A DNA stretch of 64,000 nucleotides from a virus (IMGVR_UViG_3300033066_001904:22763-86762), one strand, 5' to 3'. Counted from the stretch's first letter, positions 18,501 through 62,379 are shown. Numbers and translations: made by a program. The notes: generated from the letters alone by a model not told the origin.

Positions 18501-18895
18501 TTAACTGTTACTTCTCTTAAAGATCCATATGCTGATTTAGATGCAATAGAAATATCTGTAATACCAGGCATTGGTCTAATACCTAAGCGATAAGGTTGTC
18601 CTGAAGGACTCACGTTAGAGTAAACATCGCTTATATTTTTTCTAAGATTTCCGTCTTCTTTTAGTATTCCACCTTGTAAAATATATTTTTTAGCTAAAGC
18701 ACCACCATCATCTTTTACAGGTAATCCATTTTCATCTACTTCCGTAACTATATTAACTGCTGAGGTCATTCTAATCCATGAGTTGCGAGAATTTAGGTAT
18801 TGTAAATTTTGAGGAGTACGATTTACTAATGCATTTTGACGTGCATTTATAGAGGCACTAATTGCCGGAATAAATGTATCCTTAAATATGCTCAT
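15593..18895 (-). CDS. baseplate hub / tail-associated protein with C-terminal lysozyme-like domain
   Basis: N-terminal RPMPGIT...LYMRPGYTVLVEWGW hub-like region; C-terminal IHQNE...LEKYNGLGY...SPYLWS. Confidence 0.7.
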   Translation of the reverse strand: MSIFKDTFIPAISASINARQNALVNRTPQNLQYLNSRNSWIRMTSAVNIVTEVDENGLPVKDDGGALAKKYILQGGILKEDGNLRKNISDVYSNVSPSGQPYRLGIRPMPGITDISIASKSAYGSLREVTVNFVAWDIRQLEDLELLYMRPGYTVLVEWGWAPYLDSDGSYKTNIQYYDIINQQKPKEQIFKEIFVKATEEYKGNYDACFGYVKNYSWSARPDGGYDCQTHIISLGEVIESLKVNYAPFDLNTSIGTNGILASRLSQINLNSQDLVTEYNKNILAGICYELKEIVYSSTKGKEQLYTINDGGDYYHFFAKNLEVTGQKNTKNTQVYITLESFLKILNKYVLLKDVKGNSPFVSLSDKERKYDKVNQDDKSLLCLAHPLQISTDPSVCLISSPIWQKGFKVSTSTVDDTNLDNLIQFSNTDYTSLINDILYKFYITTFKDSYKQEIITKIKIQTRQNTNEIKEFHKQFQQQKNNLEVVVGGKKLTDVIGQNASLKDFLAYRLSTGQIIEAVGDVRGTLGTINFNYVATVNNPIQEETKALNDAKKSFNDKQSDAYKNLQFLNVLKEFPYFVDNNPYKELGIIGNIFLNVDFLYNLSLNINLSSQDKKEKNEISLYDYLKNTMSEVSQAIGNVSNFDIHVDHIDGMVRIIDINYVDNLSRDEIYKKAFELQVHNLRSTVRNYKLESQIFQEQATIVAIGAQTGGGALGVDSSTLVDFNKKIVDRIIPKKDAPLNTSKDTKTTIEEIKNKLNNLETKLSSLYEYFGNLEQGYVASAKYDINKSSEYKNALKDIIVFFKNITKSDIKNRAIIPTKLSLEMDGIGGLVIGHVFKIPSDILPKGYKGGEVGSRIGYIITGIGGKVANEDWTTSIDAQTIILDNPSGQFIKFEDLVVVENNTLKTKNISDINSQPSVGNIKQLWDSATVNSDKYGELDTLINQMVANKNRYTNIGSQVNTPWYIVAIIHQNECSLDFSKHLYNGDSLQFKTIRYPSGKLVGINPPYTFEQSAVQALKDAEFDKTDFSTIYQQLYALEKYNGLGYRQYGVNSPYLWSYTNQYKAGKFVKDKVFSFEAVSQQPGAAAILKRMKDRGIIN

Positions 18896-19229
18896 GTGTA
18901 TTTTCTATTTTAACCCTCTTTTTTAAAATACCCCATATATATGCATTATTACTATTCTGCCATTTTCCTAAATTTTCAAAACGAGAATCATTTATCATTT
19001 CATCATAAAATTTTTTATCCGTAATATCATTTCCATAATATTCTCCATCTCCATTTATTGGAAATATCCGACAATAATATTCTGGGAAATGTTCAGGACC
19101 TGGACCTTGACCTCCATCCCAAAAAAATGTATGAATTTTTAAAAAAACCCCGTCACTTACCTTATATGCCATAAGGAGATTAGGATTATTTATACCAATT
19201 TCGGCTAATATGTTTGAAAATTTAATCAT
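18882..19229 (-). CDS. EIGxNxP-tagged protein (putative capsid-internal cargo)
   Basis: Starts MIKFSNILAEIGINNP. Confidence 0.7.
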   Translation of the reverse strand: MIKFSNILAEIGINNPNLLMAYKVSDGVFLKIHTFFWDGGQGPGPEHFPEYYCRIFPINGDGEYYGNDITDKKFYDEMINDSRFENLGKWQNSNNAYIWGILKKRVKIENTHEHI

Positions 19230-19812
19230 CTAGCACTATTAAAATCGTTAAACAGTTTTAAAACAGCATTAAGATCAGTTGGAATTCTTAATTGCGTCCC
19301 TGGTTGAGGAAATAACGATCCTCTAGTAACATTATTATTAGCAGCCGAAATTATTCTCCACAAAGATGAATCTCCGTAATAATTATAAGCTAAATTATCT
19401 AATCGATCTCCAACAGATGTAATAATGTAAAAATCATTATTAGACAAAGGTATATTAGGATATAACTTACCTTGATAATAAGGTACTCCTTGATCTGTTT
19501 TTTTTATGTCTAGATTAGTATATAAGTTCATTTATTTTTCTCCCAATAATTTTCTAATGATGTTTTAGTCCACCAATCCCACCCACCTTGATTTTGGGGT
19601 AGATCTTTTTTTGGTAAATCTCGTGCACCAATCATTGTAAGTCCTTTATTATGGACAATTTGTTTTACTTTTTGAGGAGGATTAGTGTCATATAGAGAAA
19701 ATTCTAAGATATCTCCTTCTTGAATTCTTTCAAATTTTACTCCTGGTTTATCTAAGTTCCATGTCTGAGAAGGTTTATTAACACCAATTTCGGCTAATAT
19801 GTTTGAAAATTT
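19194..19812. repeat. 30-bp exact direct repeat (19194-19223 and 19783-19812) flanking the LysM gene
   Basis: accaatttcggctaatatgtttgaaaattt at both positions; encodes the tag KFSNILAEIG. Confidence 0.9.
19226..19531 (-). CDS. LysM-domain baseplate wedge protein (gp53/TailX-like)
   Basis: GDRLDNLAYNYYGDSSLWRIISAAN...GTQLRIP. Confidence 0.85.
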   Translation of the reverse strand: MNLYTNLDIKKTDQGVPYYQGKLYPNIPLSNNDFYIITSVGDRLDNLAYNYYGDSSLWRIISAANNNVTRGSLFPQPGTQLRIPTDLNAVLKLFNDFNSAR

Positions 19813-19818
19813 TATCAT
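19528..19818 (-). CDS. EIGxNxP-tagged protein (putative capsid-internal cargo)
   Basis: Starts MIKFSNILAEIGVNKP. Confidence 0.7.
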   Translation of the reverse strand: MIKFSNILAEIGVNKPSQTWNLDKPGVKFERIQEGDILEFSLYDTNPPQKVKQIVHNKGLTMIGARDLPKKDLPQNQGGWDWWTKTSLENYWEKNK

Positions 19819-21713: not shown

Positions 21714-21716
21714 ATA

Positions 21717-33161: not shown

Positions 33162-34429
33162 TATACTAATATATATTTACCTACACTAGTTATTTCATCA
33201 CTAGTATCAATTGAATATCCTAATGCTCCTGTATTAAACATTACTCGAACATCACTTCCTATTTCTTGAAAATCAGAAATATATTGGTTTTCTACAAATT
33301 GACCATTAATAAAGAATGTAAAATTATTAAGACTCGAACTAGGTAAACCTGATCCACTAGGTGGTTGTGATATGTTTACTCCATTAAAGTAAGCAGTGTC
33401 ACTACCAGATACATTACTAGTTACTACAGGAATTGAATTGTTTAAGTATTGTAAACTTGAAGCCCATACTCCACTTCCACTATAATAATTTGTTATATTA
33501 TATGTATTATTTATATTAAGGCCATCTCCAATAAATGAAGTATTTTTAATAGTATTTCCTGTAGATAACTGAGAAGAAGCAACGTATGTTGTTTCAGCGT
33601 CACCTACACTCTCTAATCCAAAAACAACTTGAGATGTAGAATAATACATACTTTTACCAGCAATTTCTTTATTAACACTATCTGGGATAATATAACCATT
33701 AACTGTTAAATTAAAATTAGTTCTAACTGTTCTGTCTGATCCTTGTTCAATAATATTTGTAACTGAAAAATTGTCTATTTTTGATTTAAAATGAAAACGT
33801 TTAAAATCTCCCCAATAAGAATCTGATGCAAATTCTATGGATTCTATTAATTTATTATTTTGTTCTATGAAATCTGTAAAAACAATACAATTATATGATA
33901 TAGTAACGTAATCAGGTACTACACTAACATAAAATTGTTTATTGGGAACTCTATTATTTAATAAAGAAAATTTATCGTATTGATTTTTTGCGTTATAACG
34001 TGTTTCAAAAACTTGAAATAAATGACTTTTATTACCGTCTAATTTGTTACCTAAATTTCTATTTTTTTCAATAGAATCTCTTTTAAACATAATTAGAGGA
34101 GCCATTAATTTACCATTTTTATCCCTATAAAATCCATCATTTTGTACAGATTTCCAACGTTCAGGAGATCCATATATTATAGGTACATTAATTAAAGTAT
34201 TATTTTGAACAACTTGTGGTTTTATCGTATTTTCAAAATAAAACATAATAGCCTTATCTATATCCTCTAAACTAATTGATATATCTTGAATATTATCATT
34301 TTTTCTTGAAATATCTCTACCCCTATTGTCACTTATAGGAGGTTTTCCAACAGCCTTTTCATAAGGGACAAAATTTTCTTGTTGTACTTCAACAATGGTT
34401 TTAGGAATAGGTTTTAGTTTACGTGGCAT
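33161..34429 (-). CDS. tail terminator / sheath stabiliser (gp15-like) with C-terminal extension
   Basis: VPIIYGSPERW, APLIMFKR, VPDYVTISY. Confidence 0.7.
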   Translation of the reverse strand: MPRKLKPIPKTIVEVQQENFVPYEKAVGKPPISDNRGRDISRKNDNIQDISISLEDIDKAIMFYFENTIKPQVVQNNTLINVPIIYGSPERWKSVQNDGFYRDKNGKLMAPLIMFKRDSIEKNRNLGNKLDGNKSHLFQVFETRYNAKNQYDKFSLLNNRVPNKQFYVSVVPDYVTISYNCIVFTDFIEQNNKLIESIEFASDSYWGDFKRFHFKSKIDNFSVTNIIEQGSDRTVRTNFNLTVNGYIIPDSVNKEIAGKSMYYSTSQVVFGLESVGDAETTYVASSQLSTGNTIKNTSFIGDGLNINNTYNITNYYSGSGVWASSLQYLNNSIPVVTSNVSGSDTAYFNGVNISQPPSGSGLPSSSLNNFTFFINGQFVENQYISDFQEIGSDVRVMFNTGALGYSIDTSDEITSVGKYILV

Positions 34430-34779
34430 TATTTAAGATTTTGTTGACGTAATTTAACGTATTTATCTAAAGTATCTAAATCAGCTTTAGCTAAAGATAA
34501 TAATTTCATTATAGTTCCAGCTGTTTGTTTAATATTTTCATCATCGTGGAACATTTTATATGGAGCTAGTTCTGTTCTCATTTTAGACAATTGAGATTTC
34601 ATTCTACCAAAATTAGCTAAATTTTCAACTTTTTGAAATTCAGCTCCGGTACGGGGATCAGTCTCATTTGAACCTAATCTAAAGCCCTTGTCAATTAATT
34701 CCTGTTCGGAATCTTTTGCTTTGTATCCACGAGGCATTTGAGTATATACTTCTCTTACTATTTGTATTAATGTTTTCAT
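34429..34779 (-). CDS. hypothetical protein with tag-like N-terminus
   Basis: Starts MKTLIQIVRE. Confidence 0.6.
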   Translation of the reverse strand: MKTLIQIVREVYTQMPRGYKAKDSEQELIDKGFRLGSNETDPRTGAEFQKVENLANFGRMKSQLSKMRTELAPYKMFHDDENIKQTAGTIMKLLSLAKADLDTLDKYVKLRQQNLK

Positions 34780-35381
34780 TATATTTCTATTGTTTTAATA
34801 ATCTCTACATTTTGTTCAGGAATAACATATAAATATTCGTCTGACCCGTATGTATGTTTTTCTTTCTCTAATTTCATTAAAGGAAAATATTGTGATTTTT
34901 TTAATCTTTTTACATTAAATTCATCAAACCATTCATAATATATTTTATTTTTTTCATCATAATGAAAATAAAATTCATTATCTATTTGAATTACGTTTTC
35001 AGATTCCCACACACTAAGAATTTCTTTTGGATATAATACAGCTCTAATTTTATTAGGTATATTTACACCAATTTCATCTAATTTACCAACAATTTGAATT
35101 TGAGATTTAGGAATAATTAATAATATTCTATTACCATCCTGATATTTTTTAAACCATTTTTTTAAAATATTACTATCACCCTCATACTGATCATAAGTAT
35201 AATAATATCCTGGAATACAGTGGGCAGATATTGGTGTATTTCCATCAAAGCACAGAATATCAGTATCTTCGCCATAATCTTTTATAAGTATTGTACCGAG
35301 TAATTCATTACTTTCATATGCTTTTAACTTATGAGGATCGTTAATACCTATTTCACGTAATATATTTTTAAAAGTTATCAT
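34779..35381 (-). CDS. two-module EIGxNxP-tagged protein
   Basis: MITFKNILREIGINDP plus internal KLDEIGVNIP. Confidence 0.7.
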   Translation of the reverse strand: MITFKNILREIGINDPHKLKAYESNELLGTILIKDYGEDTDILCFDGNTPISAHCIPGYYYTYDQYEGDSNILKKWFKKYQDGNRILLIIPKSQIQIVGKLDEIGVNIPNKIRAVLYPKEILSVWESENVIQIDNEFYFHYDEKNKIYYEWFDEFNVKRLKKSQYFPLMKLEKEKHTYGSDEYLYVIPEQNVEIIKTIEI

Positions 35382-35923: not shown

Positions 35924-36283
35924 TTATTTTATATTGTGTAATATTATTAAAGCATTATTATACCCTAATCCAAGAGTAATGCAATATTTATAAAGATATG
36001 GTAAATCAAATGCATCCTCAGCACTATCCTCTACTTCAAAGACATAAATATCTTTTATAGTAAAATTATCATAATATAATTTAGCATATTTATCATTTTC
36101 ACTAGGATTTTCTATACTATCTCCTAAATCCTTCATGTAATATTTATAATTATCATAAAGATATAAATTCTGAATTAAAGCATACCCATCTTGGTCAGAA
36201 GTTGTAATATAATCTAAAATTTCCTTTTTAGTTATTGGTTTATTTATACCAATTTCAGGTAATATGTTTTCAAATTTAATCAA
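35924..36283 (-). CDS. EIGxNxP-tagged protein
   Basis: Starts MIKFENILPEIGINKP. Confidence 0.7.
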   Translation of the reverse strand: MIKFENILPEIGINKPITKKEILDYITTSDQDGYALIQNLYLYDNYKYYMKDLGDSIENPSENDKYAKLYYDNFTIKDIYVFEVEDSAEDAFDLPYLYKYCITLGLGYNNALIILHNIK

Positions 36284-36611
36284 CTTCTATCTTTAATGTG
36301 TTTTTGGGAATTCTAATCCAACTATATTCATCACTATCATCATCATCAACTATTTTATATTTTATATTATGTTTTTTTACAATATTAATAAAATCATTAA
36401 TATCTTTTTGATAATTTTCATCACTTTTCTCAAATTCTATACTAACTGTATCTGGATTATAATCCTCATTCCACATTCCCGCATATGATTTATCCCCATA
36501 TGTTATTAAATATTGTTCTGAACCATCTCCTGCAAAGTCAACAATTGCATTAAAAATTTTATTTGGATTATTAATACCTATTTCACATAATATTTGTTTA
36601 AATGTTATCAT
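36276..36611 (-). CDS. EIGxNxP-tagged protein
   Basis: Starts MITFKQILCEIGINNP. Confidence 0.7.
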   Translation of the reverse strand: MITFKQILCEIGINNPNKIFNAIVDFAGDGSEQYLITYGDKSYAGMWNEDYNPDTVSIEFEKSDENYQKDINDFINIVKKHNIKYKIVDDDDSDEYSWIRIPKNTLKIEVD

Positions 36612-36928
36612 TACATTTCCTTCTTTAAAATAGTTTTATATCTTGGCATAAATTGCATTAATCCTTTAATAGGAATTGCTTTCTTTTTTATCAAGTCTAT
36701 CTCTTCTCGGGGAGTTGAACTTACAACATATTTTACGTGTAATAAAGCAAATTCCCATTGAGGTGTTTTTTTAGTGTCTAAAAATGAATTTTGTTCTACT
36801 TTTACAACTACAACACCTTCTATTGCTCTTAATAAATTATATATTTCTACCTTATTAAAACGAGTATCTGTTTTAATTAAAACTTCACATTCAAATAGGT
36901 TTAATGCTTCTTTTAATATACTAATCAT
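36611..36928 (-). CDS. hypothetical protein with tag-like N-terminus
   Basis: Starts MISILKE. Confidence 0.6.
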   Translation of the reverse strand: MISILKEALNLFECEVLIKTDTRFNKVEIYNLLRAIEGVVVVKVEQNSFLDTKKTPQWEFALLHVKYVVSSTPREEIDLIKKKAIPIKGLMQFMPRYKTILKKEM

Positions 36929-42661: not shown

Positions 42662-43831
42662 TTAGATAATGTTTGCTAGTTTTTGCATACGAGAAATAAC
42701 ATCATTAGACTCAACAATTTGTTTTCTAGGAGAAACTCCTAAAGCTTTTGAAGCAAATCCTAATGATTCTTTAACCATTTGTTTTTTATTATTTGCTTTT
42801 CCACCAATTGTTGTTTGAAGTGACTCATAAATTAATTTAGCTTCTTGAGTTGTTCTTGCTTTATCAAATGAAGCTAAAACTTTAACCTTTTGAGATTCAT
42901 TTAAATTTTGAGCTTTAAATATTTTATTTACATAAAGCATTTTAGCGTTAAATAAATTTACCTCATTTAGTTCAGAACGAAGAGTTTTGATTGTTTGAAT
43001 AGCTTTTGCTAATTCTTTTGATTCATTCATGTTTGTTTTTCCTACTTGTTTGTAACCTAATTTGCTTGTAGTAGCAATAGCTTTTTTACCAGCAGGCCAT
43101 TTTTGAATTTTTGCTTCTTCTAAATCTTCTTCTTCTTCATTTAAAGCGTCTAGTTCAGATAGTAATTCGTTAAGATCGAAATCATCTTCGTCTAAAGAAT
43201 CATCTTCTTCACCACCTATTGGAGGATTCATATCGTCACCGCCCATATCTGAACCGGCTCCCATATCGTCTCCACCCATGTCGTCCATTCCATCACCCAT
43301 ATCGTCGCCTCCTAGATCATCACCCATATCTGAAGCTCCCATTCCACCAGCTGATGCTATAACATCACTGATAAGATCTTTAAATTCTGCAACTGTTAAG
43401 CTGCTGATTTTTTCATCTTCTGGTGAAGATTCTTCTGAATGGCTTTGTTTTGGACTTGAATCCGATTTTGGTTTTGGTTTTGAATCTGATGAATCTTTCT
43501 TTTTAGGTGCTGAATCTTTCTTATCATCATCTTTAGCTTCGTCTAGTTCATCTTCATCATCTAGTTCAGCTAAGATAGAATTAAGATCGAAATCTTCTTC
43601 TAAACCTTCATCTCCATATGATGCATTATCATCCATCATTTCATCTAAGTTTTCATCTTGATTTTCATCAAGTTCTTCTTCTTCTTGTTCTCTAAGTTTT
43701 GCTGAGATCATTGATTGAATTTTTGGTGTTAATGCTTCTTCTAGAGCTGCTTTAGCGTTAAGTAAAGCTGCCTCACGAACTGCTTTTGCATCTGCAATAG
43801 CTTGTTCAAATAAACTTTTGTTTTTTGACAT
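42662..43831 (-). CDS. prohead core scaffold protein (gp22-like)
   Basis: Highly acidic middle with many L-x-E sites, LNEVNLFNAKMLY, ends RMQKLANII; directly upstream of capsid gene. Confidence 0.8.
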   Translation of the reverse strand: MSKNKSLFEQAIADAKAVREAALLNAKAALEEALTPKIQSMISAKLREQEEEELDENQDENLDEMMDDNASYGDEGLEEDFDLNSILAELDDEDELDEAKDDDKKDSAPKKKDSSDSKPKPKSDSSPKQSHSEESSPEDEKISSLTVAEFKDLISDVIASAGGMGASDMGDDLGGDDMGDGMDDMGGDDMGAGSDMGGDDMNPPIGGEEDDSLDEDDFDLNELLSELDALNEEEEDLEEAKIQKWPAGKKAIATTSKLGYKQVGKTNMNESKELAKAIQTIKTLRSELNEVNLFNAKMLYVNKIFKAQNLNESQKVKVLASFDKARTTQEAKLIYESLQTTIGGKANNKKQMVKESLGFASKALGVSPRKQIVESNDVISRMQKLANII

Positions 43832-43978: not shown

Positions 43979-44251
43979 CTAGGAATTTAGAGAATTTAAT
44001 AATTTTAGCAAATCATTATATATTAGTTGTAAAGTTTTAGGAGATAGTTTGTCTAACTGATATTGAAAATCGCTATAGTCTAAATTATATTTGTTAATTA
44101 TATCTGAAACACTAGTATATTCATCAGGTAGCCAAAAATTATAATATTTAGGATGTCTTTGAATTTTGTGCTCTAAATCTTTAATTTTTTCTGGAGTTAC
44201 GCTAGGAATATTTACTCCTATTTCGGCTAATATTTTGCGAAATTTAATCAT
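43979..44251 (-). CDS. EIGxNxP-tagged protein (helical module)
   Basis: Starts MIKFRKILAEIGVNIP. Confidence 0.7.
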   Translation of the reverse strand: MIKFRKILAEIGVNIPSVTPEKIKDLEHKIQRHPKYYNFWLPDEYTSVSDIINKYNLDYSDFQYQLDKLSPKTLQLIYNDLLKLLNSLNS

Positions 44252-44882
44252 TTTTATCCGGGCATAGAGGACATATGCCTGTCATGTTACATATGATCTC
44301 GGTAATTAAAGTATGAACTTTTTGATATTTGTTATAACCATTATTATATATTTTACCTTCTTTTAAAGAATTTCCTGCTCTTCTCATAAAGGCGTTTGGG
44401 GTAGATGGAACGGACACTAAATCCCAACATAGTAGATCAAAATCATCTTGAACTTCTACAGCTTCTCCCATTTGTTGGACAGATCCCATACCTCTTGAAG
44501 ATATTCCCAATGGAATACCTGCTAATACTAACTCTTGTGCTATTTTACCTGACGGTGTATTTAATAATAGTAATTCTCCCATAAGATCATTACCTTCCCA
44601 CCATATTTCTGTAATAAGATGTGATACATTTGATAAATTTATTATAGTAGCATCAGGGTGGTCTAGTTCTCCCATAGAATTTTTATTAGCTATGGGTCCT
44701 TTTACATATTTTTCTGCTTCTCTAGCTAAAACATCACGAGGGTATACACGACCATTTCCATTTTTTTGTTCTGCTTCTTGTAATTTACCTCTAAGACGTA
44801 TTCTTCCATCATTTCCTCTTCCTTCAGAAAGAACTAATTTAGCGTCACTATGGTATGTATAATCTACTAGTAATTGTTTCAT
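44244..44882 (-). CDS. prohead protease (gp21-like)
   Basis: NGNGRVYP, GELDHP, GISSRGMGS, WDLVSVPS. Confidence 0.93.
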   Translation of the reverse strand: MKQLLVDYTYHSDAKLVLSEGRGNDGRIRLRGKLQEAEQKNGNGRVYPRDVLAREAEKYVKGPIANKNSMGELDHPDATIINLSNVSHLITEIWWEGNDLMGELLLLNTPSGKIAQELVLAGIPLGISSRGMGSVQQMGEAVEVQDDFDLLCWDLVSVPSTPNAFMRRAGNSLKEGKIYNNGYNKYQKVHTLITEIICNMTGICPLCPDKND

Positions 44883-46367: not shown

Positions 46368-47597
46368 TTATTTTCCTTTTAAAGTGGCTAAACTTTTATC
46401 TTTATAGCTACTAATATTTTTTACTCTACCTTGAACAACTTCTAAAGTCCAATTATGAACTTGATCTATTCCTGCATTTTGTAAAACTAACACATCACCT
46501 TGTTTACCTGTATTATCTCTAACAAATACATCATATGTTCCATTAGGTTTAGCGTGAAGAACTACAAATCCTGTAATTTCATTGTTAACTATCATTTGAC
46601 GGAATAAACCATATTCATTTACATAGTAAACATCTTTAAAGTCAGGTGAAGTTTGTAAAATTTTCCAACCTTCTTTTCTCATTTGGTCTCCCATATTTTT
46701 TAAAGGAGAATATATGGTATCTACTATGGTAGGTACTTTATATAAAGTGTCTTTTTCTGCTTTAGATAACTTTGGAGATAATATTAAAGCAGCTATAATA
46801 GATGCTGTTAATAAACCTTTTTTAGAATATTCTTTAATTTTAGTTAAAACACGTTTAAAATCAACAGATTCTTGTAAATTTCCCAATATATCGTCCACAA
46901 TAGCTTGTTCTTGATTGCTGTCTTCTTGTAAAGATTTCATCTTTTCATTTAAAGAAGCCATCATTTCTGAAATTTGTCCAACAAATTGTTGGGTTTCTTT
47001 CCAATATTTAATACCATCACCTTCTGATAGTTCTTGTTTCATTTTAGAAGTATATTCAACTATACTGTCAATTTCTTGAAGTCTTTTTTTAACTTGTTTA
47101 ATTGCTCTATTTAATTGTTCATTTTTTGAACGATATGATATACTTTGTTTAAATTGTTTAAATGAATTTTCTTTTAACAATTCACTTTTAATAATTTCGT
47201 ATATTTTATCGTGTTGACATGAACATTTTTCTTTTCCTTTGAATGCTTTAGGAGTAGAATAGGCTCCTACATCACCTGATGTTGAACCTTCATCTTCTTC
47301 TAAATTAGGATTAAGTTTATTCCAAGTTTTTACTAAATCATTATAAAGTTTATTTAATTTAATGGAATCCAAAGCGGAAAGCCATTCATCATAATCGTCA
47401 TCAGGATCGTAACCATATGACATAGCTATTTTATCTACGCTTATATCATTTTCTTCATCATTCAAAACAGTATATGATATTTTTTTTGATAATTCATATA
47501 CTTTTTCTGGAGTTATAGAAGGACTATTTACTCCTATTTCTTTAAGGATAAATTTATTAATATATTCTTTTAAACTATTTGGCATATTTAACTTCAT
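46368..47597 (-). CDS. head-associated protein with N-terminal EIGxNxP module
   Basis: FILKEIGVNSP, later STSGDVGAYSTPKAF and several L-x-E sites. Confidence 0.6.
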   Translation of the reverse strand: MKLNMPNSLKEYINKFILKEIGVNSPSITPEKVYELSKKISYTVLNDEENDISVDKIAMSYGYDPDDDYDEWLSALDSIKLNKLYNDLVKTWNKLNPNLEEDEGSTSGDVGAYSTPKAFKGKEKCSCQHDKIYEIIKSELLKENSFKQFKQSISYRSKNEQLNRAIKQVKKRLQEIDSIVEYTSKMKQELSEGDGIKYWKETQQFVGQISEMMASLNEKMKSLQEDSNQEQAIVDDILGNLQESVDFKRVLTKIKEYSKKGLLTASIIAALILSPKLSKAEKDTLYKVPTIVDTIYSPLKNMGDQMRKEGWKILQTSPDFKDVYYVNEYGLFRQMIVNNEITGFVVLHAKPNGTYDVFVRDNTGKQGDVLVLQNAGIDQVHNWTLEVVQGRVKNISSYKDKSLATLKGK

Positions 47598-48472: not shown

Positions 48473-50371
48473 TTATATGTTCTTAATATTTTTTTCGTCT
48501 AATATATCGCCCTCTTTTTCAAAGACCATTTCCTTTTTGCTAAAATCTATGGATTCTAATAATTTTTTGTTTTTCATATATTCTGCTAAAGCTAGTGGGG
48601 AACCTCCTTTAGGAACACCATTTTCGTCACCTTTTCTCATTAAATTTTGATTAGCTGTACGAGAATTCTCTTTACTTCCTAGTCTATCTTTACCTAAAGG
48701 ATCTTGTTGTGTATTAATTATAGACGATTTTTCAACAGGTCTACCTAAAGTTTTCTTTTCATCATATCCCGGAGGAGTAACTCCATTGTCGTTAGCACCG
48801 GATCTACCTAGACCTGACATTTGGGCTAAATCATGAGGAGTACCATAAGATTTACCAGATTTTGCAGGATCATTACCTTCATTTTCAATTTGATTATGTC
48901 TAAATACTCGTTTTTTATCTTCTAAAACTAGATCTCTATATTCATCATATTGATCCTCAGAAAACTGAAATACTTTATCATATATCCAATCCGATGGTAA
49001 TAAGCCTGTATCTTGAATACTTCTAGCTAGATCTACTTTTTCTTTCCATAAAGCCACTTTTTCTTGTTCATATACAACTGATGGAGTTGTTAGAGATAAT
49101 TCAAAATTAGATAATGATTCTCCGTCATATCCCTGAACATATAAATGCACTAATGCTATTTTGTATAGTTCTGATAGAACAATACGTTGTATACGTTCTA
49201 CAGTACGAGCAAATCTAATATCTTCTGCGGCTAATGTAGCTTTACCTTGTAAATCTTTTTCAAATCCAAAAAATGCTTTAGGTACTTTTAGAGCAGCTAA
49301 CATTTCATCACGTAAAAAATTAACGTCTTCTATGGCATTATATTGTAGACCAGGCATGTTTTCTATTCTTGTAGTAGCATCATTACCTCTCATTGGAATG
49401 TAGAAATCTTCTAATACGTTTTGTACGTTATATTTTAAGTTATATTCACCTGTTTGTTGATCAATGTAAGGAGTTTTCTTCATTTTTTGCATAACTTTTT
49501 GCATATAAGCATCTACCTCATGAGGGGGTATATTTCCTACATTTATATAAAATGCTCTTTTATCTGCTGCTCTTGTAATACGATGTAGTAACATCGCATC
49601 CTTCATTAAAGTATATTGTTTATACGTTTTTCTAGCTGGCTCTATAAATGCTCTTCCATAAGGTAAATAGTTGGCATCTGTTAATAATCTAAAGTGAGCT
49701 ACTTCATAGTTTTCAAACTTAATTTTACCATCTCTATCTCTAGAACGAGAATTTATTCCACCCGCAGAAATAACCATAGGGTCTATTTTAAAAGAAACAT
49801 AATTAGGATTATTAGGATCCATCCCTTCTTCTCTAATCATATCATAAACTGATAAAGGAGTTACATTGTATACTCCGAATTTTTCTGCTATTTCCATGTG
49901 TAGATAAAAATCTCCATATTTACACATATTTCTTATCCACAACCAAAGATTAAATTCTATATTTAAAATATCATAAAATAAATTATATAATATTTTTTGA
50001 ATACTTTCATCAGCACTTCTAATTTGTAATACTTCTTGAGCTTCATTTTTTAATGTAGATTCATCTGCAATAATATCTAAAGAAGAAGCTATTATAGATT
50101 CTGTATCCATAGCCTCATAATCCGTATACAATTGAATTCTAAGTGTTTGATAATTCATTGTAGGATTATACGGCATATTAGCTCCGTATCTATGTAACTT
50201 AGTAAATCTATCTATTAATGAATTGGTTTTTACATTACCATAAGATTGTATTCTATCAACGTCAGTTACTTTTAATTGATTTCCTCCTACATTTCTTATA
50301 ATTACATCAGTACTAAATAATCTTTTTAATTTTGTAAAAAGACCATCATTTTGATTATTATTTTCTGCCAT
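48473..50371 (-). CDS. portal protein (gp20-like)
   Basis: YGRAFIEPARK, RAFYINVGN, EDFYIPMRG, LKVPKAF. Confidence 0.95.
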   Translation of the reverse strand: MAENNNQNDGLFTKLKRLFSTDVIIRNVGGNQLKVTDVDRIQSYGNVKTNSLIDRFTKLHRYGANMPYNPTMNYQTLRIQLYTDYEAMDTESIIASSLDIIADESTLKNEAQEVLQIRSADESIQKILYNLFYDILNIEFNLWLWIRNMCKYGDFYLHMEIAEKFGVYNVTPLSVYDMIREEGMDPNNPNYVSFKIDPMVISAGGINSRSRDRDGKIKFENYEVAHFRLLTDANYLPYGRAFIEPARKTYKQYTLMKDAMLLHRITRAADKRAFYINVGNIPPHEVDAYMQKVMQKMKKTPYIDQQTGEYNLKYNVQNVLEDFYIPMRGNDATTRIENMPGLQYNAIEDVNFLRDEMLAALKVPKAFFGFEKDLQGKATLAAEDIRFARTVERIQRIVLSELYKIALVHLYVQGYDGESLSNFELSLTTPSVVYEQEKVALWKEKVDLARSIQDTGLLPSDWIYDKVFQFSEDQYDEYRDLVLEDKKRVFRHNQIENEGNDPAKSGKSYGTPHDLAQMSGLGRSGANDNGVTPPGYDEKKTLGRPVEKSSIINTQQDPLGKDRLGSKENSRTANQNLMRKGDENGVPKGGSPLALAEYMKNKKLLESIDFSKKEMVFEKEGDILDEKNIKNI

Positions 50372-54833: not shown

Positions 54834-55244
54834 TTAAAAACTAGTTAAAGACATGTAGTGGTTAATATCAGCATTGTTTTTAATACAGTCTGGATTTTTT
54901 AATTGATATTTAAATTTCCACTGGAGGATTTCTTCCACAGGTGATATTTTAATAATATTTTCTTCAAATGGATATTCTATATATTGTGCATTTGGATTGA
55001 AAAATAATTCAAATCTTTTTTCCTCATAGCTATAGTGTTTTATTAATCCTTTTCGAGGTCTATCTTTTATTTCAAATAAGTCATAAATATGGATTCTATC
55101 TGAACATACTAAATCCACATCTTTTGGTTCGCGATAAGGAATAGCTCCTTGTAATAAAAGAGCTACACTTCCCCCCAAATATATATTAGGGTATTTTTCT
55201 TGCAATTCTATAATTTTATCTGTATAACATTTTTTTAACACCAT
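54834..55244 (-). CDS. minimal nucleotidyltransferase-fold protein
   Basis: YLGGSVALLLQG...PKDVDL (GS + DxD Pol-beta-type motif). Confidence 0.65.
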   Translation of the reverse strand: MVLKKCYTDKIIELQEKYPNIYLGGSVALLLQGAIPYREPKDVDLVCSDRIHIYDLFEIKDRPRKGLIKHYSYEEKRFELFFNPNAQYIEYPFEENIIKISPVEEILQWKFKYQLKNPDCIKNNADINHYMSLTSF

Positions 55245-55606
55245 ATTGTATCGTAATATATTGGCTTTCCTTGAAAGGTAATATTTGGAACTAATCTAAA
55301 ACTGGTTCCCGAACCGCGTTCATGCCATTCTTCTGGAGATCTTAGCGAGATTAAAATACCACTACAATCATTTATTTGATTTCTATTTTGAGTTATAGAA
55401 ATAGTATCAAATACTCCTTCGTCGAAAAGAGCTTCTTCTTCACAGAATGCATTTGCTATATCATATATAGATGTGTTCTCTTCTAAATCACTTTCTATAC
55501 CTTCTAAAATTTTAAATATTTCAATTTTCTTATTTTCTACGAAAGATAGAAAATTATTTGGGATATTTACACCAATTTCATCAATAATATCAGAAAATTT
55601 TATCAT
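55235..55606 (-). CDS. EIGxNxP-tagged protein
   Basis: Starts MIKFSDIIDEIGVNIP. Confidence 0.7.
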   Translation of the reverse strand: MIKFSDIIDEIGVNIPNNFLSFVENKKIEIFKILEGIESDLEENTSIYDIANAFCEEEALFDEGVFDTISITQNRNQINDCSGILISLRSPEEWHERGSGTSFRLVPNITFQGKPIYYDTIWC

Positions 55607-56067
55607 GCTATTTTTACTCCATTTTCGTCATAATGAACAACATCACCAATATATTCTCCACTTGGTTCAAACCAACCAACAAACTCAGTACCCTCCTCAT
55701 CGTTATAGGGTATTTCTATTGTAATTTCATGAGGAGGATGTATACTAATTTTTATATCAAAACAGTCAGATGGTTTATAAGGACTAGTAAATCCCCAATA
55801 AAAATCATTTATTAAGTAAAATCTATCAAGTTTACCATACTTTTGAATTAGTTTAATAAATGCTTCTTTTCTTTCTTTGTCCCCGGCCCATGATGAATTA
55901 AAAGAATGTATTGTATAATCTTCTCTCATTGGTTCAAGTGATTCAAATCCACTATTACCGTCTCCAAAATATTGGAGTAATACTTTAACTGATTTCATAT
56001 CTTCCTTAGTGAAGGATTTAGGTACATTTACACCTATTTCTTGTAGTATTTTGCTAAATTTTATCAT
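55603..56067 (-). CDS. EIGxNxP-tagged protein
   Basis: Starts MIKFSKILQEIGVNVP. Confidence 0.7.
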   Translation of the reverse strand: MIKFSKILQEIGVNVPKSFTKEDMKSVKVLLQYFGDGNSGFESLEPMREDYTIHSFNSSWAGDKERKEAFIKLIQKYGKLDRFYLINDFYWGFTSPYKPSDCFDIKISIHPPHEITIEIPYNDEEGTEFVGWFEPSGEYIGDVVHYDENGVKIA

Positions 56068-58076
56068 TTTATTATACCTGCTCTTAACATAAATTTATAT
56101 TTATCCCAATCATCGTATATTGATTCTTTTAAAATAAATGGTTTATCATCTACTTTTAAATCTTTAAGAGAAAATATTCTTCTTTGCTCCTGATTTGGAT
56201 AACCATTTAAAATTTGATCATCACCTAAAGTTATATTTTCGCTATTTATGCGTTTTATAATTTTATCTGTATTTGGATCTAACAAAACCCATTTATAGTA
56301 AAAATTATCACTTTTTTCTTCTGGTAAGAGAAGATACTTATCCACCATGAACGGAACAGCATAAAAATGTACTATATTAGGATCATTTGGATCGTTGCTT
56401 TTTGGAGCTTTAGCTCTTTTTGTTAATTCTAAAATAGCTTCTTGTTCTTCTCTACTTAAACTTATCCATTGTTTGTAAAAAATAGGAACAGGAGTAACAT
56501 TCTGCTTTGGCATCTCAGTTCTTTCATTTAGAACCTTAAGGTTATTTGTTCCTGAGTCATATTCCCAATTTTCTAACAGTTTAAAATATATAGTGTATAA
56601 TTTTTTTAATTTATCGTTCGATATGTATTGAATATATTTTTCTGGGATATACCATAATCTTTTAGCATCATTATCTACATAATCTTGTAATAATTCCTTG
56701 TTAAGGAACATATCAATAAATTCTACAGTAAGTGAAGATGGAATGTCTTTGTATTTATCATAATATCTTTTTTTAGATTCCTCTTTTAGATATGGTACAA
56801 ATATAATGGGTAAATCTTCATTGGGATATCTACTAGATCTGTATTCAGCATAACGTCTTAGTAATTGTTTACTATCTTTTAATTCATCAAAATTGAATTT
56901 ACGGTCATAGTTAATAAGTTCATTTCTACTTACTTCACCATCTGGAGGAATTGATTTAACTATTTCTGATGTAACAATATTTCTATCTGTAGCGTTTGCT
57001 CTTAACCAGTCTCTTTTATCTTCATTATCCATGTCGATAAATTCTTCTAAGGTTTTTCTTGCTCCTCTAAAACCAAGGCGACGTTGTTCATCTTTATTAG
57101 GAGGGATAAATTTAAATAATGATTCAAGATTTTTTATCTTATTCCATAATCTTATACCCGAAGGTGAATTAGAAAATAATTTTTTACCCATCTCATCCCA
57201 ATCCATTGGTTGGGTTTCATCTCCGTTAACAGCTGTTGTACGGGTATAACCTCCACCTGCAAAGGCGTGTAACACTACAGCATGGTATTTATCATCTCTA
57301 GGTAAAGATCTGTCAAAAATGAAATAAAACATTCTATTAAGCTTGGCATTGCTTTGCATGTATCTATAACTAGGATACATGGTATTACCTATACACCATC
57401 CGTAAGAACCTTTATATTTTTTACCGTAATATACACATTTATGTTCTTCATCTCCTTTAAAAATTTCTATATCATCTTTATCATACACTAAATCACCTTG
57501 AGCATGAGCATCATTACTTTCTCCTCCTTCTCCTTCTAAAGGGAATAAGGTATCTAACATATTTTCTAGTGTATGGAAATTTCTCCAATTTAAAATATTC
57601 TTATATGCATCTTTATGTAATAGTTCTTTAGGAACTACAGCTAAAGCGTTTTCATTTTTAGCTTCCACAGCTTGTTGAAGTGCTGCTAAATTTTGTTTAA
57701 AACGAGCAACGTAATTTCCTATAACTTGTGGATTAGCGTATTGATCTTGTTTTTTATACATTTCAATAGCTTGTTTATATACATCTACTGACTTAGTATC
57801 AGCCGCTTTTAATACTTTAACTAAAGTAGCATAATCTTTATATTGTGTGATGTCTCTAAACTTATTATTAGCTTTTAAGTCATCGGGAATAGATGCTACT
57901 ATTAGAGGATTTTGGTCTGCTAATTTTTTAGCTATTGCTCCTGTAAGTTGTTCAAATCTTTTAATGTTTGCTTTAATTTGTTCCTCGGGGTCTTCCGTTT
58001 GAGGTTGATATAAAGCTACCATTTGATTTATAACTTTATCTGTGTATTCTTGTAGTATTTTTTTAAATGTTATCAT
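56064..58076 (-). CDS. large hypothetical protein carrying only the first half of the tag
   Basis: Starts MITFKKILQE|YTDK; two N-terminal helical repeats; CVYYG...WCIG segment. Confidence 0.65.
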   Translation of the reverse strand: MITFKKILQEYTDKVINQMVALYQPQTEDPEEQIKANIKRFEQLTGAIAKKLADQNPLIVASIPDDLKANNKFRDITQYKDYATLVKVLKAADTKSVDVYKQAIEMYKKQDQYANPQVIGNYVARFKQNLAALQQAVEAKNENALAVVPKELLHKDAYKNILNWRNFHTLENMLDTLFPLEGEGGESNDAHAQGDLVYDKDDIEIFKGDEEHKCVYYGKKYKGSYGWCIGNTMYPSYRYMQSNAKLNRMFYFIFDRSLPRDDKYHAVVLHAFAGGGYTRTTAVNGDETQPMDWDEMGKKLFSNSPSGIRLWNKIKNLESLFKFIPPNKDEQRRLGFRGARKTLEEFIDMDNEDKRDWLRANATDRNIVTSEIVKSIPPDGEVSRNELINYDRKFNFDELKDSKQLLRRYAEYRSSRYPNEDLPIIFVPYLKEESKKRYYDKYKDIPSSLTVEFIDMFLNKELLQDYVDNDAKRLWYIPEKYIQYISNDKLKKLYTIYFKLLENWEYDSGTNNLKVLNERTEMPKQNVTPVPIFYKQWISLSREEQEAILELTKRAKAPKSNDPNDPNIVHFYAVPFMVDKYLLLPEEKSDNFYYKWVLLDPNTDKIIKRINSENITLGDDQILNGYPNQEQRRIFSLKDLKVDDKPFILKESIYDDWDKYKFMLRAGIIK

Positions 58077-58611
58077 TATATCCTGGTATTTTTAACAATG
58101 CTAATATATTATTTTTAGAATTATGAATATAAAACATATTTTTTGCTTTTCGTCTTTCACTTTCACGTTTATTAGGGCTTAAATTTTGTGGTAAAGTTTT
58201 AAGAAAATCTATATATTTTTCCCAATCTGTGTGTCCCATTATATTATGTAATTGAATTTTTGCATATCTTGAATATACTAATGTTTGACCAGCCATTGGA
58301 GATTGTGTTTCTCTTCTAGAGAGCATAATTGGCTCTCCATCTACTTTAGCAGTAATATAATATGAATTACGAGCTCTTTCAGAATGCTCTACTATTACTC
58401 TTTCAGGTTTAACACCTAAAATTCCAAAAAATTGCTCAGCATTTCTTTTAGTTATACTAGATAATATCTTTTTTTGTAAAGCATTATCCCAACTAAATAC
58501 CTCAGCTTGACCCTTTGTACTCTTATTAATATGTTTAAATTTACCTAACTGTAGGTTAAAAGCAGGTTTATTTATACCAATTTCGCATAATATTTGCTTA
58601 AAAGTCATCAT
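58063..58611 (-). CDS. EIGxNxP-tagged protein
   Basis: Starts MMTFKQILCEIGINKP. Confidence 0.7.
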   Translation of the reverse strand: MMTFKQILCEIGINKPAFNLQLGKFKHINKSTKGQAEVFSWDNALQKKILSSITKRNAEQFFGILGVKPERVIVEHSERARNSYYITAKVDGEPIMLSRRETQSPMAGQTLVYSRYAKIQLHNIMGHTDWEKYIDFLKTLPQNLSPNKRESERRKAKNMFYIHNSKNNILALLKIPGYNDNI

Positions 58612-59605: not shown

Positions 59606-59838
59606 TTTCCTTTTAATTTTTGATAGCGTTTAGTAATAGCATTAACAATATCTGCTTCTTTTAACCCAGCTTTAGGTCTAGTTTTGGGAGCATCATGAGG
59701 TGGTGTTAAAGGGCGTCTTACTGGTGGATTTTTGGGTTTTGTTCCCGGAGTAACTTTAGGTTTTGGTTTTGTTGTCGGTTCAGCCATTAACTCGTTAATC
59801 GCTTTACGTACTAATTGGCGTAATTCTTGTATATTCAT
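59602..59838 (-). CDS. small Pro/Lys-rich protein
   Basis: MNIQELRQLVRKAINE then a PTTKPKPK low-complexity stretch. Confidence 0.65.
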   Translation of the reverse strand: MNIQELRQLVRKAINELMAEPTTKPKPKVTPGTKPKNPPVRRPLTPPHDAPKTRPKAGLKEADIVNAITKRYQKLKGK

Positions 59839-59873
59839 AATTATTTTAGTTCATGTATATAAATATCGAAAAA

Positions 59874-59898: not shown

Positions 59899-59919
59899 AA
59901 TACATTAATATTATTATTA

Positions 59920-60477
59920 TTATGATTCTAGATCATCATCTGATAATGATGCTAATCTTGCTTGAATATCTGGAGATATGCTTCTACCTCTTTTTAGAGT
60001 ACCTAAAGCTCTACCTTTTATTTGTTCTAATTCTTCAGGTTCAAATAATGCAACTTGTTCAGGTGAAGGTTGGAAATTAGGATCTGTTTTATACCCATTA
60101 TAAATTTCTTCTGCAGCAATTGCTTTAGCACTTTTAGGGCGACCTTTAATACCTGATGTTGGTGGTTTTTCTTTTTTAGGAACTACCGTTTCTCCTCTAG
60201 TTATTACACCAGCTGCTAACAATTTACCAAATGGTGGATTTATGTGGGCTACTTGTGAATATCCATAAAAATTTGCTATATCCTCAATAGTTGAATTTGG
60301 ATGTTTTTGCAAATATTTAATAATCATTTGTGTTTTAGATGAGTTTTGCCATTGTGCTTCAACTTTTTCTAAATTTTCTAGATTCCCAATAGAATATCTT
60401 GATGCAATACGAGCCATTTCTTGCATTCTAGCCTGAACTGTCTCTTTTATTAATTCTCTAAGTTGTGAACGAGTCAT
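59920..60477 (-). CDS. winged-HTH-like protein with AT-hook-like motif
   Basis: MQEMAR...IEDIANFYGYSQVAHINPPFGKLLAAGVI; KGRPKS. Confidence 0.55.
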   Translation of the reverse strand: MTRSQLRELIKETVQARMQEMARIASRYSIGNLENLEKVEAQWQNSSKTQMIIKYLQKHPNSTIEDIANFYGYSQVAHINPPFGKLLAAGVITRGETVVPKKEKPPTSGIKGRPKSAKAIAAEEIYNGYKTDPNFQPSPEQVALFEPEELEQIKGRALGTLKRGRSISPDIQARLASLSDDDLES

Positions 60478-60526
60478 GTAGTATATACTTTATCAATAAA
60501 TATTGATTCTTTTGAAAAGAAATCAA

Positions 60527-61945
60527 TTATTTGGCTTTAATTTGAGATGGATCTGTATATGTTATAATACGAGGTGTTGAAATAGTGGAAATTTTTATAC
60601 TTGGGTCAAACTTTCTTTTTAAAAACGATTCTAATTTTTTTACACTTTCCGCATCTGATAAAAATAATTTTGTTAATTTGTAAGATTTAATTGAATAACC
60701 ACCGTTTTTTAATTCATCTGTAAAATTTATATAAAAATTATCAGCTATCCAAGATCGTAAAGATTGTCCGGGGGTTGGTTGATAAATTTTAGCTGTAGTT
60801 TTACCTTTAGGTGAAGGATAATATATTAAAATTTTACTAAAAGTGTCAATTTTATTTGGTTTTGAAGTGATTGTTGCTTTTGGAAATATGCTTTTTATGT
60901 ATAAAGAATATTTTTCTAGAACTTTTTTATTAGTTGAATCTATTACTGAACGTCTGTAACTTAATAAGTTTTGATTAATATCTGAATGGATATATAATTT
61001 CATTTTGTCATAAATAGATATAAGATTAGCCACGTTGATTTCATAAAGTGTTCCTTTATCGGAAATTTTATGCTTTGGAGTTATAAGTTTACGATAAGAT
61101 AAATCATTAGTCTCTAGCACCCATGAATTAAACGTCATTCCTCTGTGGTATGGAGAAAAAACACGCTCCGGAGATTTGATGTCAATATGGTATAATTTAT
61201 GATAGTCGGTTGGAATGTTTATACCTATTTCATCTAGTTGAAACTTTTCATAGTGAAATAAATTATTAGCTGGTTTACCGATCCAAATTGCTCCACTATC
61301 TTCTATTACAAATAACCTATCTCCATCTTTCTGTGCTTGTCCTAATTCTTCGTTGTATGTTAACAACATTCCTATATCAAATAGATTTTGACTAATAGTA
61401 TTATCAATTACAGAGTATGAATGTAATTTTCCGGTAGGATCTGGTACAAAATCATATTTTCCTAAATTATTTTTAGCCATAGTTCCTGCTCTAAGAGCTG
61501 ATGTCCATCCTAATCCTGATACATATGTAATATATTTATAATGTTCTTTTCTCATTATAGGGATAATATTATTTATATTTTCCTGTATGAGAGGATAATA
61601 TTCTTGTGGTAAGTTTCCTTTGCCTGGTAAAATCACACCAATTTCATTTAGAGAAAATTTATTTCTGGCTAAAACATGTCCATCATTTACAATATCAATA
61701 ATATCTTGTGGTGTAAGATTATTACCTGATGGTCCTTTTAGCAGATCATATTTAGCTAAACGCATTAATATTTTTATCTGTAGAGATAAATTAAGATCAT
61801 CTATATCATGGAAAACTATATTAATATCTATACCATCTGGATATTCATGTATAACTTCTCCAACATATTTGTCACTAGATCCATCATCTTCTGGAGTTGA
61901 AGATGGTTCTTCAATGGATTTTATTAAAAAGTCGGTATAGTTCAT
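60527..61945 (-). CDS. polyprotein-like ORF with two internal EIG tags
   Basis: SLNEIGVILP and QLDEIGINIP. Confidence 0.65.
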   Translation of the reverse strand: MNYTDFLIKSIEEPSSTPEDDGSSDKYVGEVIHEYPDGIDINIVFHDIDDLNLSLQIKILMRLAKYDLLKGPSGNNLTPQDIIDIVNDGHVLARNKFSLNEIGVILPGKGNLPQEYYPLIQENINNIIPIMRKEHYKYITYVSGLGWTSALRAGTMAKNNLGKYDFVPDPTGKLHSYSVIDNTISQNLFDIGMLLTYNEELGQAQKDGDRLFVIEDSGAIWIGKPANNLFHYEKFQLDEIGINIPTDYHKLYHIDIKSPERVFSPYHRGMTFNSWVLETNDLSYRKLITPKHKISDKGTLYEINVANLISIYDKMKLYIHSDINQNLLSYRRSVIDSTNKKVLEKYSLYIKSIFPKATITSKPNKIDTFSKILIYYPSPKGKTTAKIYQPTPGQSLRSWIADNFYINFTDELKNGGYSIKSYKLTKLFLSDAESVKKLESFLKRKFDPSIKISTISTPRIITYTDPSQIKAK

Positions 61946-62379
61946 GGAATCATTTTAAATTCACCCGCTTTTACGGGTATTATTAGGCGTATTCTGTCTT
62001 GTACAGATACTTTTACTCTACCTGGACCACATACTTTATCAAAGTATGATTGAATTTTTTGTTTTACAATTTTACGTATAGACTGTACAGGTTTGATATA
62101 AGTAGATTTAAAATTAGGATCTCTTCTTCGACTAAATTTATCTCTATAATATTCATTCCATCCTAGTCCTATTTTTCTATACCCTAAACCATAAAATTTA
62201 TATGAATACCCACCTATTACTTTATCAGTATATGCTAAGTTCAGCTGATTTTTTTCATACCATGTTTTCATAGTATCATTTTCATCAGGATCTATAAATG
62301 TTTCAGGATATATTTTATATAAAAATTTATTAGGATCATTAATACCTATTTCTTGTAAAATTTGTTCAAACATTATCAT
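61942..62379 (-). CDS. EIGxNxP-tagged protein
   Basis: Starts MIMFEQILQEIGINDP. Confidence 0.7.
   Translation of the reverse strand: MIMFEQILQEIGINDPNKFLYKIYPETFIDPDENDTMKTWYEKNQLNLAYTDKVIGGYSYKFYGLGYRKIGLGWNEYYRDKFSRRRDPNFKSTYIKPVQSIRKIVKQKIQSYFDKVCGPGRVKVSVQDRIRLIIPVKAGEFKMIP

Follow-up and report, generated by a model that had tools for sequence, protein, structure and literature searches.

The stretch of viral DNA considered here, referred to below as the window (IMGVR_UViG_3300033066_001904:22763-86762; 64,000 nucleotides (nt)), comes from an uncultured T4-like phage and makes up the right-hand 64 kb of a virus record in IMG/VR that is 86.8 kb long and has an estimated completeness of ~52%. 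It has a G+C content of 29%, encodes every gene on the minus strand, and carries a T4-type head module with genes for a terminase, a portal, a protease, a scaffold-like protein and a capsid protein. Thirteen of its open reading frames (ORFs) share a short peptide, E-I-G-(V/I)-N-x-P. At most N-termini this peptide belongs to a 16-residue tag that consists of two separable parts, a 10-residue leader and a joint, L-x-E↓I-G-(V/I)-N-x-P (↓ marks the predicted cut), and the internal copies retain just the joint. The tagged ORFs lie inside operons, where they overlap their neighbors by 1-23 nt or are a few nt away.

A preliminary description of the window counted 17 copies of the peptide in the 13 ORFs, and a six-frame regular-expression scan found all of them in place. 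Thus, E-I-G-[VIL] gave 17 matches, all on the minus strand, with codon triplets that end exactly at the coordinates given earlier (19194 to 62344); 16/17 read E-I-G-(V/I)-N-x-P, and the remaining one, at 61645, reads E-I-G-V-I-L-P. By chance, the residue composition would give 0.002 copies in the long minus-strand ORFs, or 0.015 when all six frames are counted, and 2000 shuffles returned a mean of 0.003. The glutamate of the first copy is residue 10 in 10/13 ORFs, residue 11 in 39518-40939 and residue 20 in 46368-47597. Internal copies number five overall, and 60527-61945 is the one ORF (1/13) that has internal copies only. The proposed N-terminal consensus, M-I-(K/T)-F-x-x-I-L-x-E, is what we obtained for the ORFs that start exactly 10 residues before I-G; Phe4 occurs in 11/11 N-terminal tags, along with Ile7, Leu8 and Glu10. 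The near-invariant core comprises Leu at P3 (16/17, the other being Ile), Glu at P1, Ile at P1', Gly at P2', Val or Ile at P3', Asn at P4' (16/17) and Pro at P6'.

The conserved entity is the peptide and not a DNA repeat, because the tag DNA has a mean pairwise identity of 63% and the synonymous sites follow the usage of the genome. Thus, the codons at invariant residues (ATT 7/ATA 10; CCT 11/CCA 6; TTA/CTA/CTT) are those expected from the genome, with a GGT bias as the sole departure. This agrees with the earlier view that selection acts on the peptide.

Clustering of the payload modules from the window and related contigs (54 distinct modules) revealed two recurrent families. Family A (20 members) is beta-rich, ~90 amino acids (aa) long, and has a conserved strand just ahead of the next L-x-E; family B (9-10 members) is helical and ~75 aa long. 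The remaining modules include many singletons. The payloads had been described as largely unrelated, which holds in so far as more than 10 unrelated payloads follow the tag, but about 8 of the 18 modules in the window fall into families A and B. Mature modules would span 80-389 aa with isoelectric points (pI) of 4.3-10.0, about half of them being acidic. AlphaFold models built with family alignments are confident for the domains of the two families, with mean predicted local distance difference test (pLDDT) scores of 81.3 and 80.6. In both, residues 1-15 and the trailing joint score below 50, residues 4-11 are predicted to form a short helix, and the domain sets in at residue ~17-20. According to these models, the tag lies outside the fold of both recurrent payload families and would be a joint rather than a part of the fold.

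These data bear on whether there is a peptide signal at all, since the tag could instead open a single conserved fold, or be a DNA repeat left by a mobile cassette or a recombination site. We find this hardly credible. Although members of families A and B are repeatedly found immediately after the tag, and the tagged genes look inserted between conserved genes, the tag precedes the many unrelated payloads mentioned above. A first strand of a single domain, which the preliminary description had itself named as a way in which it could fail, is rejected on the models of families A and B. The DNA repeat or mobile cassette is rejected on the tag DNA identity and the codon usage. Reading the ORFs brought up no inverted repeats or transposase genes beside the tagged genes, although no repeat search was run.

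Table 1. Tagged ORFs, leader-only ORFs and head-module genes of the window.
Position	Strand	Feature	Remarks
18882..19229	minus	Tagged ORF, 115 aa; leader and joint at residues 1-16	Payload family-A-like by eye and alignment
19528..19818	minus	Tagged ORF, 96 aa; leader and joint	Singleton payload; 4-nt overlap with both neighbors; adjoins LysM-like baseplate gene 19226-19531
34429..34779	minus	Leader-only ORF, 116 aa	M-K-T-L-I-Q-I-V-R-E
34779..35381	minus	Tagged ORF, 200 aa; joints after E10 and E103	Two tandem family-A-type modules
35924..36283	minus	Tagged ORF, 119 aa	Singleton payload; TTG start, implied by the complete leader
36276..36611	minus	Tagged ORF, 111 aa	Acidic singleton payload
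36611..36928	minus	Conserved 105-aa protein	Short leader ending I-L-K-E↓A
39518..40939	minus	Polyprotein, 473 aa; joints after E11, E106 and E208, extra degenerate joint I-N-E↓L near residue 296 (3-4 joints in all)	Just downstream of major capsid gene; modules in order: family A, singleton, family-B-like, kinase-like end module
41007..42629	minus	Major capsid protein, Gp23 family	Pfam Gp23
42662..43831	minus	Acidic scaffold-like protein, many L-x-E sites	gp22 position; assigned from position and composition
43979..44251	minus	Tagged ORF, 90 aa	Family B (helical); overlaps protease gene end by 8 nt
44244..44882	minus	Prohead protease, T4 gp21 family; proposed cutter	PF03420 and PHROG_207
46368..47597	minus	Head-module protein, 409 aa; leader-like propeptide to E20, joint, ~80-aa family-B module ending L-E-E↓, core common to relatives	Between portal and protease genes
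48473..50371	minus	Portal protein, T4 gp20 family; head-module anchor	Pfam Portal_T4
50398-51984	minus	Large terminase	
55235..55606	minus	Tagged ORF, 123 aa	Payload weakly related to last module of 60527-61945
55603..56067	minus	Tagged ORF, 154 aa	Singleton payload
56064..58076	minus	Leader-only ORF, 670 aa	M-I-T-F-K-K-I-L-Q-E, no I-G-(V/I)-N-x-P after it
58063..58611	minus	Tagged ORF, 182 aa	Basic (pI 10); tagged paralogue on adjoining contig, L101:1220-1876
60527..61945	minus	472-aa protein; internal joints after E101 (E-I-G-V-I-L-P variant) and E239	No canonical N-terminal tag
61942..62379	minus	Tagged ORF, 145 aa	Basic singleton payload

The head module (Table 1) supplies a candidate for the enzyme that would act on the joints. 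A gp21-like protease had been noted previously, and the assignment is confirmed by matches to Pfam Peptidase_S77 (PF03420; E 8.6e-26, 91 bits with a cut-off of 27 bits) and PHROG_207 (E 1e-51). The scaffold-like protein, for which PHROG and family searches gave no match, is proposed as the docking partner of the leaders. In the capsid protein, the propeptide cut is predicted at residue ~59, L-I-T-E↓G-N, with no I-G-V-N-x-P there; (I/V)-x-E at this site is kept across the relatives of the clade. The nearest cultured relative is Flavobacterium phage vB_FspM_immuto, whose capsid and protease genes are ~72% identical to those of the window at the nucleotide level, so the host is probably a member of the Bacteroidota. 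Among the neighboring genes, one for a GIY-YIG/HNH-type homing endonuclease (36925-37629; PHROG_314, E 2e-25) lies between a head-tail adaptor-like gene and the gene of the conserved 105-aa protein; relatives do not have it there.

The parallel with the capsid-targeting sequence (CTS) of T4, drawn in the preliminary description, holds position by position. In the T4 record, the leaders of ipII and ipIII have 10 residues with Tyr4, Phe7, Ile8 and Glu10, and end in I-A-E↓A, to be compared with Phe4, Ile7, Leu8 and Glu10 here. According to the review PMC9026906, ten residues of the T4 CTS suffice for encapsidation, targeting depends mainly on positions 4 and 7, and processing on 8 and 10; T4 N-terminal propeptides are 10-19 residues long. 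The review also suggests that the CTS may be the general means by which T4-like phages load varied proteins. Moreover, the T-even internal proteins are diverse defense proteins with the CTS alone in common (PMC3012670).

We consider it reasonably likely that the tagged proteins are cargo loaded into the head, and polyproteins, that are cut by the prohead protease. The mechanism could be as follows. The leader, a predicted short helix and the counterpart of the T4 CTS, would attach the protein to the scaffolding core during prohead assembly. The S77/gp21-type protease would then cut after the joint glutamate, thereby removing the leader at N-termini and separating independently folding modules within polyproteins. 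For I-G-(V/I)-N-x-P, we favor the role of a flexible, helix-breaking spacer that would present the scissile bond and insulate the cut from the payload. Every mature module would be left with the same N-terminus, remain packed alongside the DNA in the head, and probably accompany it into the host. Dozens of small modules would thus probably be packed, cut apart and injected as swappable cargo. Loading, cutting, ejection and the effector role are all what we infer from sequence. As for the cutting, the L/I-x-E tripeptide has an observed/expected ratio of 0.84 inside the payload modules versus 1.25 in other ORFs, a depletion that is weakly suggestive of cutting at the joints.

That leader and joint are separate parts is seen most directly in ORFs that have only one of them. 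Thus, 56064..58076 begins with a leader that is not followed by I-G-(V/I)-N-x-P, and the leader and the P' motif are therefore separable. The other leader-only ORF, 34429..34779, is the orthologue of a leader-bearing 117-aa protein in relatives, with homology beginning past the leader. Over the genome, a hydrophobic-hydrophobic-x-E sequence ends at residue 9-13 in 15/111 ORFs versus 2.9 expected, and 14 of the 15 are in the late part of the window. Five relatives with nearly complete genomes (155-183 kb) each have 2-7 copies of the leader M-I-K-(L/F)-x-x-(I/L)-L-x-E, always on the coding strand, versus 0 matches for a reversed-pattern control; the full joint was not found in these five. Similarly, a hidden Markov model of the tag, run on the whole records of nine relatives, left eight without a clear full tag, and G008 gave a weak leader-only match (E 0.04). 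Phage immuto (MW353175.1) has a leader of its own, ending F-L-(V/T)-E↓N, in four genes (1812, 103818, 117643 and 118641).

The repertoire had been proposed to be swappable, and indeed the same payloads are found behind a leader or an internal joint in different phages. First, the kinase-like end module of 39518-40939 follows the internal I-N-E↓L here, whereas its homologues P0022 and P0023, stand-alone proteins of ~199 aa with 36-37% identity to it, begin with the clade leader. Second, the domain of 36611-36928 is, in the relative L054, the last module of a polyprotein, right after a K-L-N-E↓ joint (E 1e-29). Third, when compared with its orthologues, 46368-47597 has an extra 80-residue family-B module inserted exactly between propeptide and core, flanked by L-K-E↓ and L-E-E↓. 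The joint itself has variants in sister lineages, namely E↓L-G-I-N-x-P (L054-L056) and E↓L-E-I-N-x-P (L245). In L245:2608-3426 (P0021, 272 aa), a leader and a SET domain are followed by the joint L-N-E↓L-E-I-N-x-P, a family A module, another joint and a family B module. The SET domain is the sole Pfam match in P0021 (26.8 bits, above the cut-off), which makes P0021 a candidate head-loaded protein methyltransferase.

Other N-terminal sequences of similar appearance were encountered in the course of the comparison. A second, longer leader family (e.g. L006:10639-11565 and L056:65-697) is found in L003, L006, L055 and L056; its consensus is approximately I-N-E-I-K-R-M-Q-Q-L-A-G-(I/L)-x-x-E and thus also ends (I/L)-x-E. 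In L054, this longer leader is fused ahead of the E↓L-G-I-N-x-P joint within tandem 150-aa repeats. In the window, the N-termini of 59602-59838, 59920-60477 and 52779-53738 end in hydrophobic-x-E within 12-20 residues (M-K/T...I-I-K-E type). Such N-termini also occur in relatives and in immuto, and may be a third leader class.

The large tagged repertoire described earlier was an undercount, as the system also comprises polyproteins and at least 19 further joints just outside the window. A scan of IMG/VR with the DNA pattern gave multi-hit contigs from two samples only, IMG 3300033066 and 3300033067. One contig overlaps the last 5.4 kb of the window with 99.8% identity and extends past the end of the window's contig; a twin from the other sample is a near-exact match to this extending contig. 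Since the adjoining contigs add 19 joints to the 17 of the window, the total for the phage comes to at least 36 joints, spread over 19 or more ORFs. They include those of an ORF of 2192 aa with 14 joints (L101:6597-13175, minus strand; partly also L110:4219-6903 and L090:1-2325). Its modules are ~80-370 aa long; several belong to family A or B, three have a common repeated motif, and one contains H-E-x-x-H. Neither Pfam, including the hallmark domains of polyvalent proteins, nor PHROG gave a match for this ORF. Two further tagged genes (218 and 100 aa; L090:7049-8434), ~2-3.5 kb past the right end of the window, lie directly upstream of a homologue of denV, the gene of endonuclease V (37% identity, E 3e-23). 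A second related phage (L082) has 11 joints in six ORFs, among baseplate genes.

The H-E-x-x-H module raises the alternative that the joints are cut by another protease, which could be this module or an enzyme of the host. Cutting would then take place in the cytoplasm or once the proteins have been delivered, as has been proposed for polyvalent proteins, and the leader would be no head signal. Polyvalent phage proteins with embedded metallopeptidases have been described (PMC5512222), and six conserved P' residues would suit an enzyme more specific than T4 gp21, which has few determinants (PMC9026906). We regard this as quite unlikely, given that the H-E-x-x-H module finds no family support in Pfam, PDB sequences or the ESM Atlas, and that P0021 has two such joints and no peptidase domain recognizable by Pfam. 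Furthermore, Leu at P3 and Glu at P1 follow the T4-type rule for S77 proteases, and the genome encodes one.

Several observations weigh against head-loading and cutting by the prohead protease, and we list them together. First, the tagged genes are scattered over the baseplate, neck, head and nucleotide-metabolism regions. Second, the predicted cut sites in the capsid and scaffold proteins, and the predicted self-cut site of the protease, are without I-G-(V/I)-N-x-P, from which it follows that the protease should not need it; the near-invariance of this stretch is not accounted for by the cargo hypothesis. Third, the pI range of the modules differs from the uniformly basic T4 internal proteins, although basicity is a descriptive trait of the latter and lies outside the targeting mechanism. 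Fourth, the depletion of L/I-x-E in payloads could reflect the beta-rich composition of family A alone. Fifth, the 2192-aa ORF has a non-canonical 17-residue leader, and its H-E-x-x-H module could belong to a protease of its own. Finally, no known anti-defense family was matched by the payloads in searches of Pfam, PHROG, PDB and Foldseek.

The gene positions and the lack of P' residues at the predicted capsid site could also be explained by an uncleaved docking peptide or flexible linker that recruits proteins to a common partner (a chaperone, a baseplate or tail component, or a membrane site), involving neither proteolysis nor packaging. The models predict a disordered or linker-like tag, and many tagged genes are indeed among baseplate and neck genes. 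A generic linker, however, needs none of the invariant Glu in L-x-E, the fixed 10-residue spacing and the T4-like pattern at 4/7/8/10, all of which suit cut-and-load, and orthologue homology starts right past the Glu junction. As for gene position, T4 Alt, a head-loaded ADP-ribosyltransferase whose termini are cut by gp21 (PMC9026906) and which is injected, is likewise encoded among late baseplate genes (PMC5512222), and so provides a precedent for tagged genes in baseplate clusters; no ADP-ribosyltransferase and no homology to Alt were found here. On balance, we hold the docking peptide to be unlikely.

Within the cargo hypothesis, the conserved post-cut residues invite two thoughts. I-G-(V/I)-N-x-P may possibly be an extended recognition sequence of the protease. 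Alternatively, there might be a two-part code whereby the leader loads the protein and the uniform new N-terminus is a second signal in its own right, which might order or thread the modules through portal and tail, or be recognized in the host for stability, localization or activation. The latter is speculation, as the models show the stretch solely as a flexible linker, and we would not expect it to be right. Outside the cargo hypothesis, the shared peptide might be the recognition or modification site of a single phage enzyme, in the style of the leaders of ribosomally synthesized and post-translationally modified peptides. A nearly invariant 9-residue core that includes Asn and Pro is typical of such sites. 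This strikes us as very improbable nevertheless: there is no Radical_SAM Pfam match (E <= 0.01) on the 86.8-kb contig, itself ~52% complete; no candidate partner enzyme is consistently adjacent; and internal copies between folded modules, together with the L-x-E rule, better fit a protease.

Returning to head-loaded cargo, the system can be compared with those already characterized. Like T4 internal proteins IPI/IPII/IPIII, compared by sequence pattern only, the tagged proteins have a 10-residue leader (position 4 aromatic, 7 hydrophobic, 8 aliphatic and 10 Glu), an L/I-x-E cut rule, and highly variable payloads behind a constant leader. As in T4, one genome encodes a protease of the gp21 family together with a Gp23 capsid protein and a gp20 portal, and the T4 order ipIII-ipII-denV is mirrored by the two tagged genes beside the denV homologue. 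The differences are just as clear. T4 has 3 copies and this phage at least 36; six near-invariant residues follow the cut here and none in T4; and the joint is also internal here, stringing up to 15 modules into polyproteins. Furthermore, T4 internal proteins are small and basic, whereas the payloads here are not uniformly basic, and no sequence homology exists between the two.

Inside the capsid, multi-site cutting after Glu by a T4-related prohead protease is known for the inner-body or ejection proteins of phiKZ, 201phi2-1 and SPN3US (PMC9026906). There, the motif is S/A-x-E with no further determinants, as opposed to P3 Leu in 16/17 and a fixed P' side here; a shared N-terminal leader is not known for these proteins, and homology was not detected. 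The tagged polypeptides also resemble the polyvalent proteins of Iyer, Burroughs, Anand, de Souza and Aravind (2017; PMC5512222), which are long phage proteins with 2-15 unrelated domains, typically including kinase, GNAT and metallopeptidase domains, and are predicted to be packaged, delivered with the DNA and then processed by peptidases. Here too, several unrelated modules are joined in one polypeptide, with 14 joints in the 2192-aa ORF and 3-4 in the 473-aa one, and the kinase-like, GNAT and H-E-x-x-H modules of this phage and its relatives may be compared with those domains. Unlike in polyvalent proteins, whose hallmark domains, among them zincin-like MPTase, ArdC-N, ART, kinase and GNAT, Pfam did not detect in the 2192-aa protein, the modules are bounded by one fixed joint that fits a prohead protease and that also heads single-module genes. 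Outside the head, short N-terminal peptides suffice to load diverse payloads into the phage-tail-like particles of PVC (Photorhabdus virulence cassettes) and extracellular contractile injection systems. Those leaders are ~50 residues long and load into the tail tube, and they are not known to be tied to an L-x-E protease site.

An effector role is what we infer for the payloads from sequence. No match was obtained for any of the 13 tagged ORFs in Pfam and PHROG, or for the payloads in PDB sequence searches, and Foldseek against PDB with the models of families A and B gave nothing at E <= 0.001. The best hit of a VIA-align wide search with the family A model was weak (Z 3.4), and the ESM Atlas returned viral hypothetical clusters alone, plus one kinase-annotated cluster. 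There are three enzyme leads: the kinase-like module in the window, a GNAT domain on an adjoining contig and the SET domain of the sister lineage, of which GNAT and SET pass Pfam. The kinase-like module (39518-40051) contains a Gly-rich loop, V-I-K and a D-x-H-type motif, and scores 0.96 in the Atlas to a cluster with 42% of members carrying Phage_T7_kinase; a BLASTP comparison with T7 gp0.7 (E 0.077) is weak and a suggestive lead only. The GNAT acetyltransferase domain, with a joint and one more module behind it, is encoded at L093:3108-3812 (minus strand; also L110:2-490) of the same phage.

When 1.84 billion representative proteins were searched exhaustively with the family-A profile, there were 14 matches, all in this lineage apart from one sister-lineage protein, and a word-based protein search with the tag profile found nothing outside this lineage. 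A tblastn search with a 24-residue tag against 50,697 cultured-phage records gave nothing real. The DNA-pattern scan of metagenomes had single chance matches among the matches listed, and the single-hit loci of the viral scan look like unrelated proteins. In the literature searched, we found no description of such leader families or of protease-jointed cargo polyproteins in environmental T4-like phages.

The principle, then, is known from T4 and has been anticipated for its relatives; what is specific here is the fixed 9-residue joint, the six conserved post-cut residues and the copy number. The fixed joint is a candidate for a compact, portable linker that could be cleaved once foreign proteins have been packaged into phage heads, and the six post-cut residues may bear on the specificity of prohead proteases or on the exit of cargo. 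Should the two-part code prove true, any protein could join the injected arsenal once spliced behind one 16-residue cassette. If the cargo hypothesis is true, the head cargo of this phage lineage would be readable from sequence, each module preceded by a joint being a candidate injected protein. This would provide a list of dozens of small uncharacterized domains, in addition to the kinase-like, SET and GNAT enzymes, as candidates for a part in host take-over or counter-defense. The CTS principle of T4 would also no longer be limited to three T-even proteins, but would apply to environmental T4-like phages, probably of Bacteroidota, with their large repertoires of shuffling cargo and their protease-jointed polyproteins.

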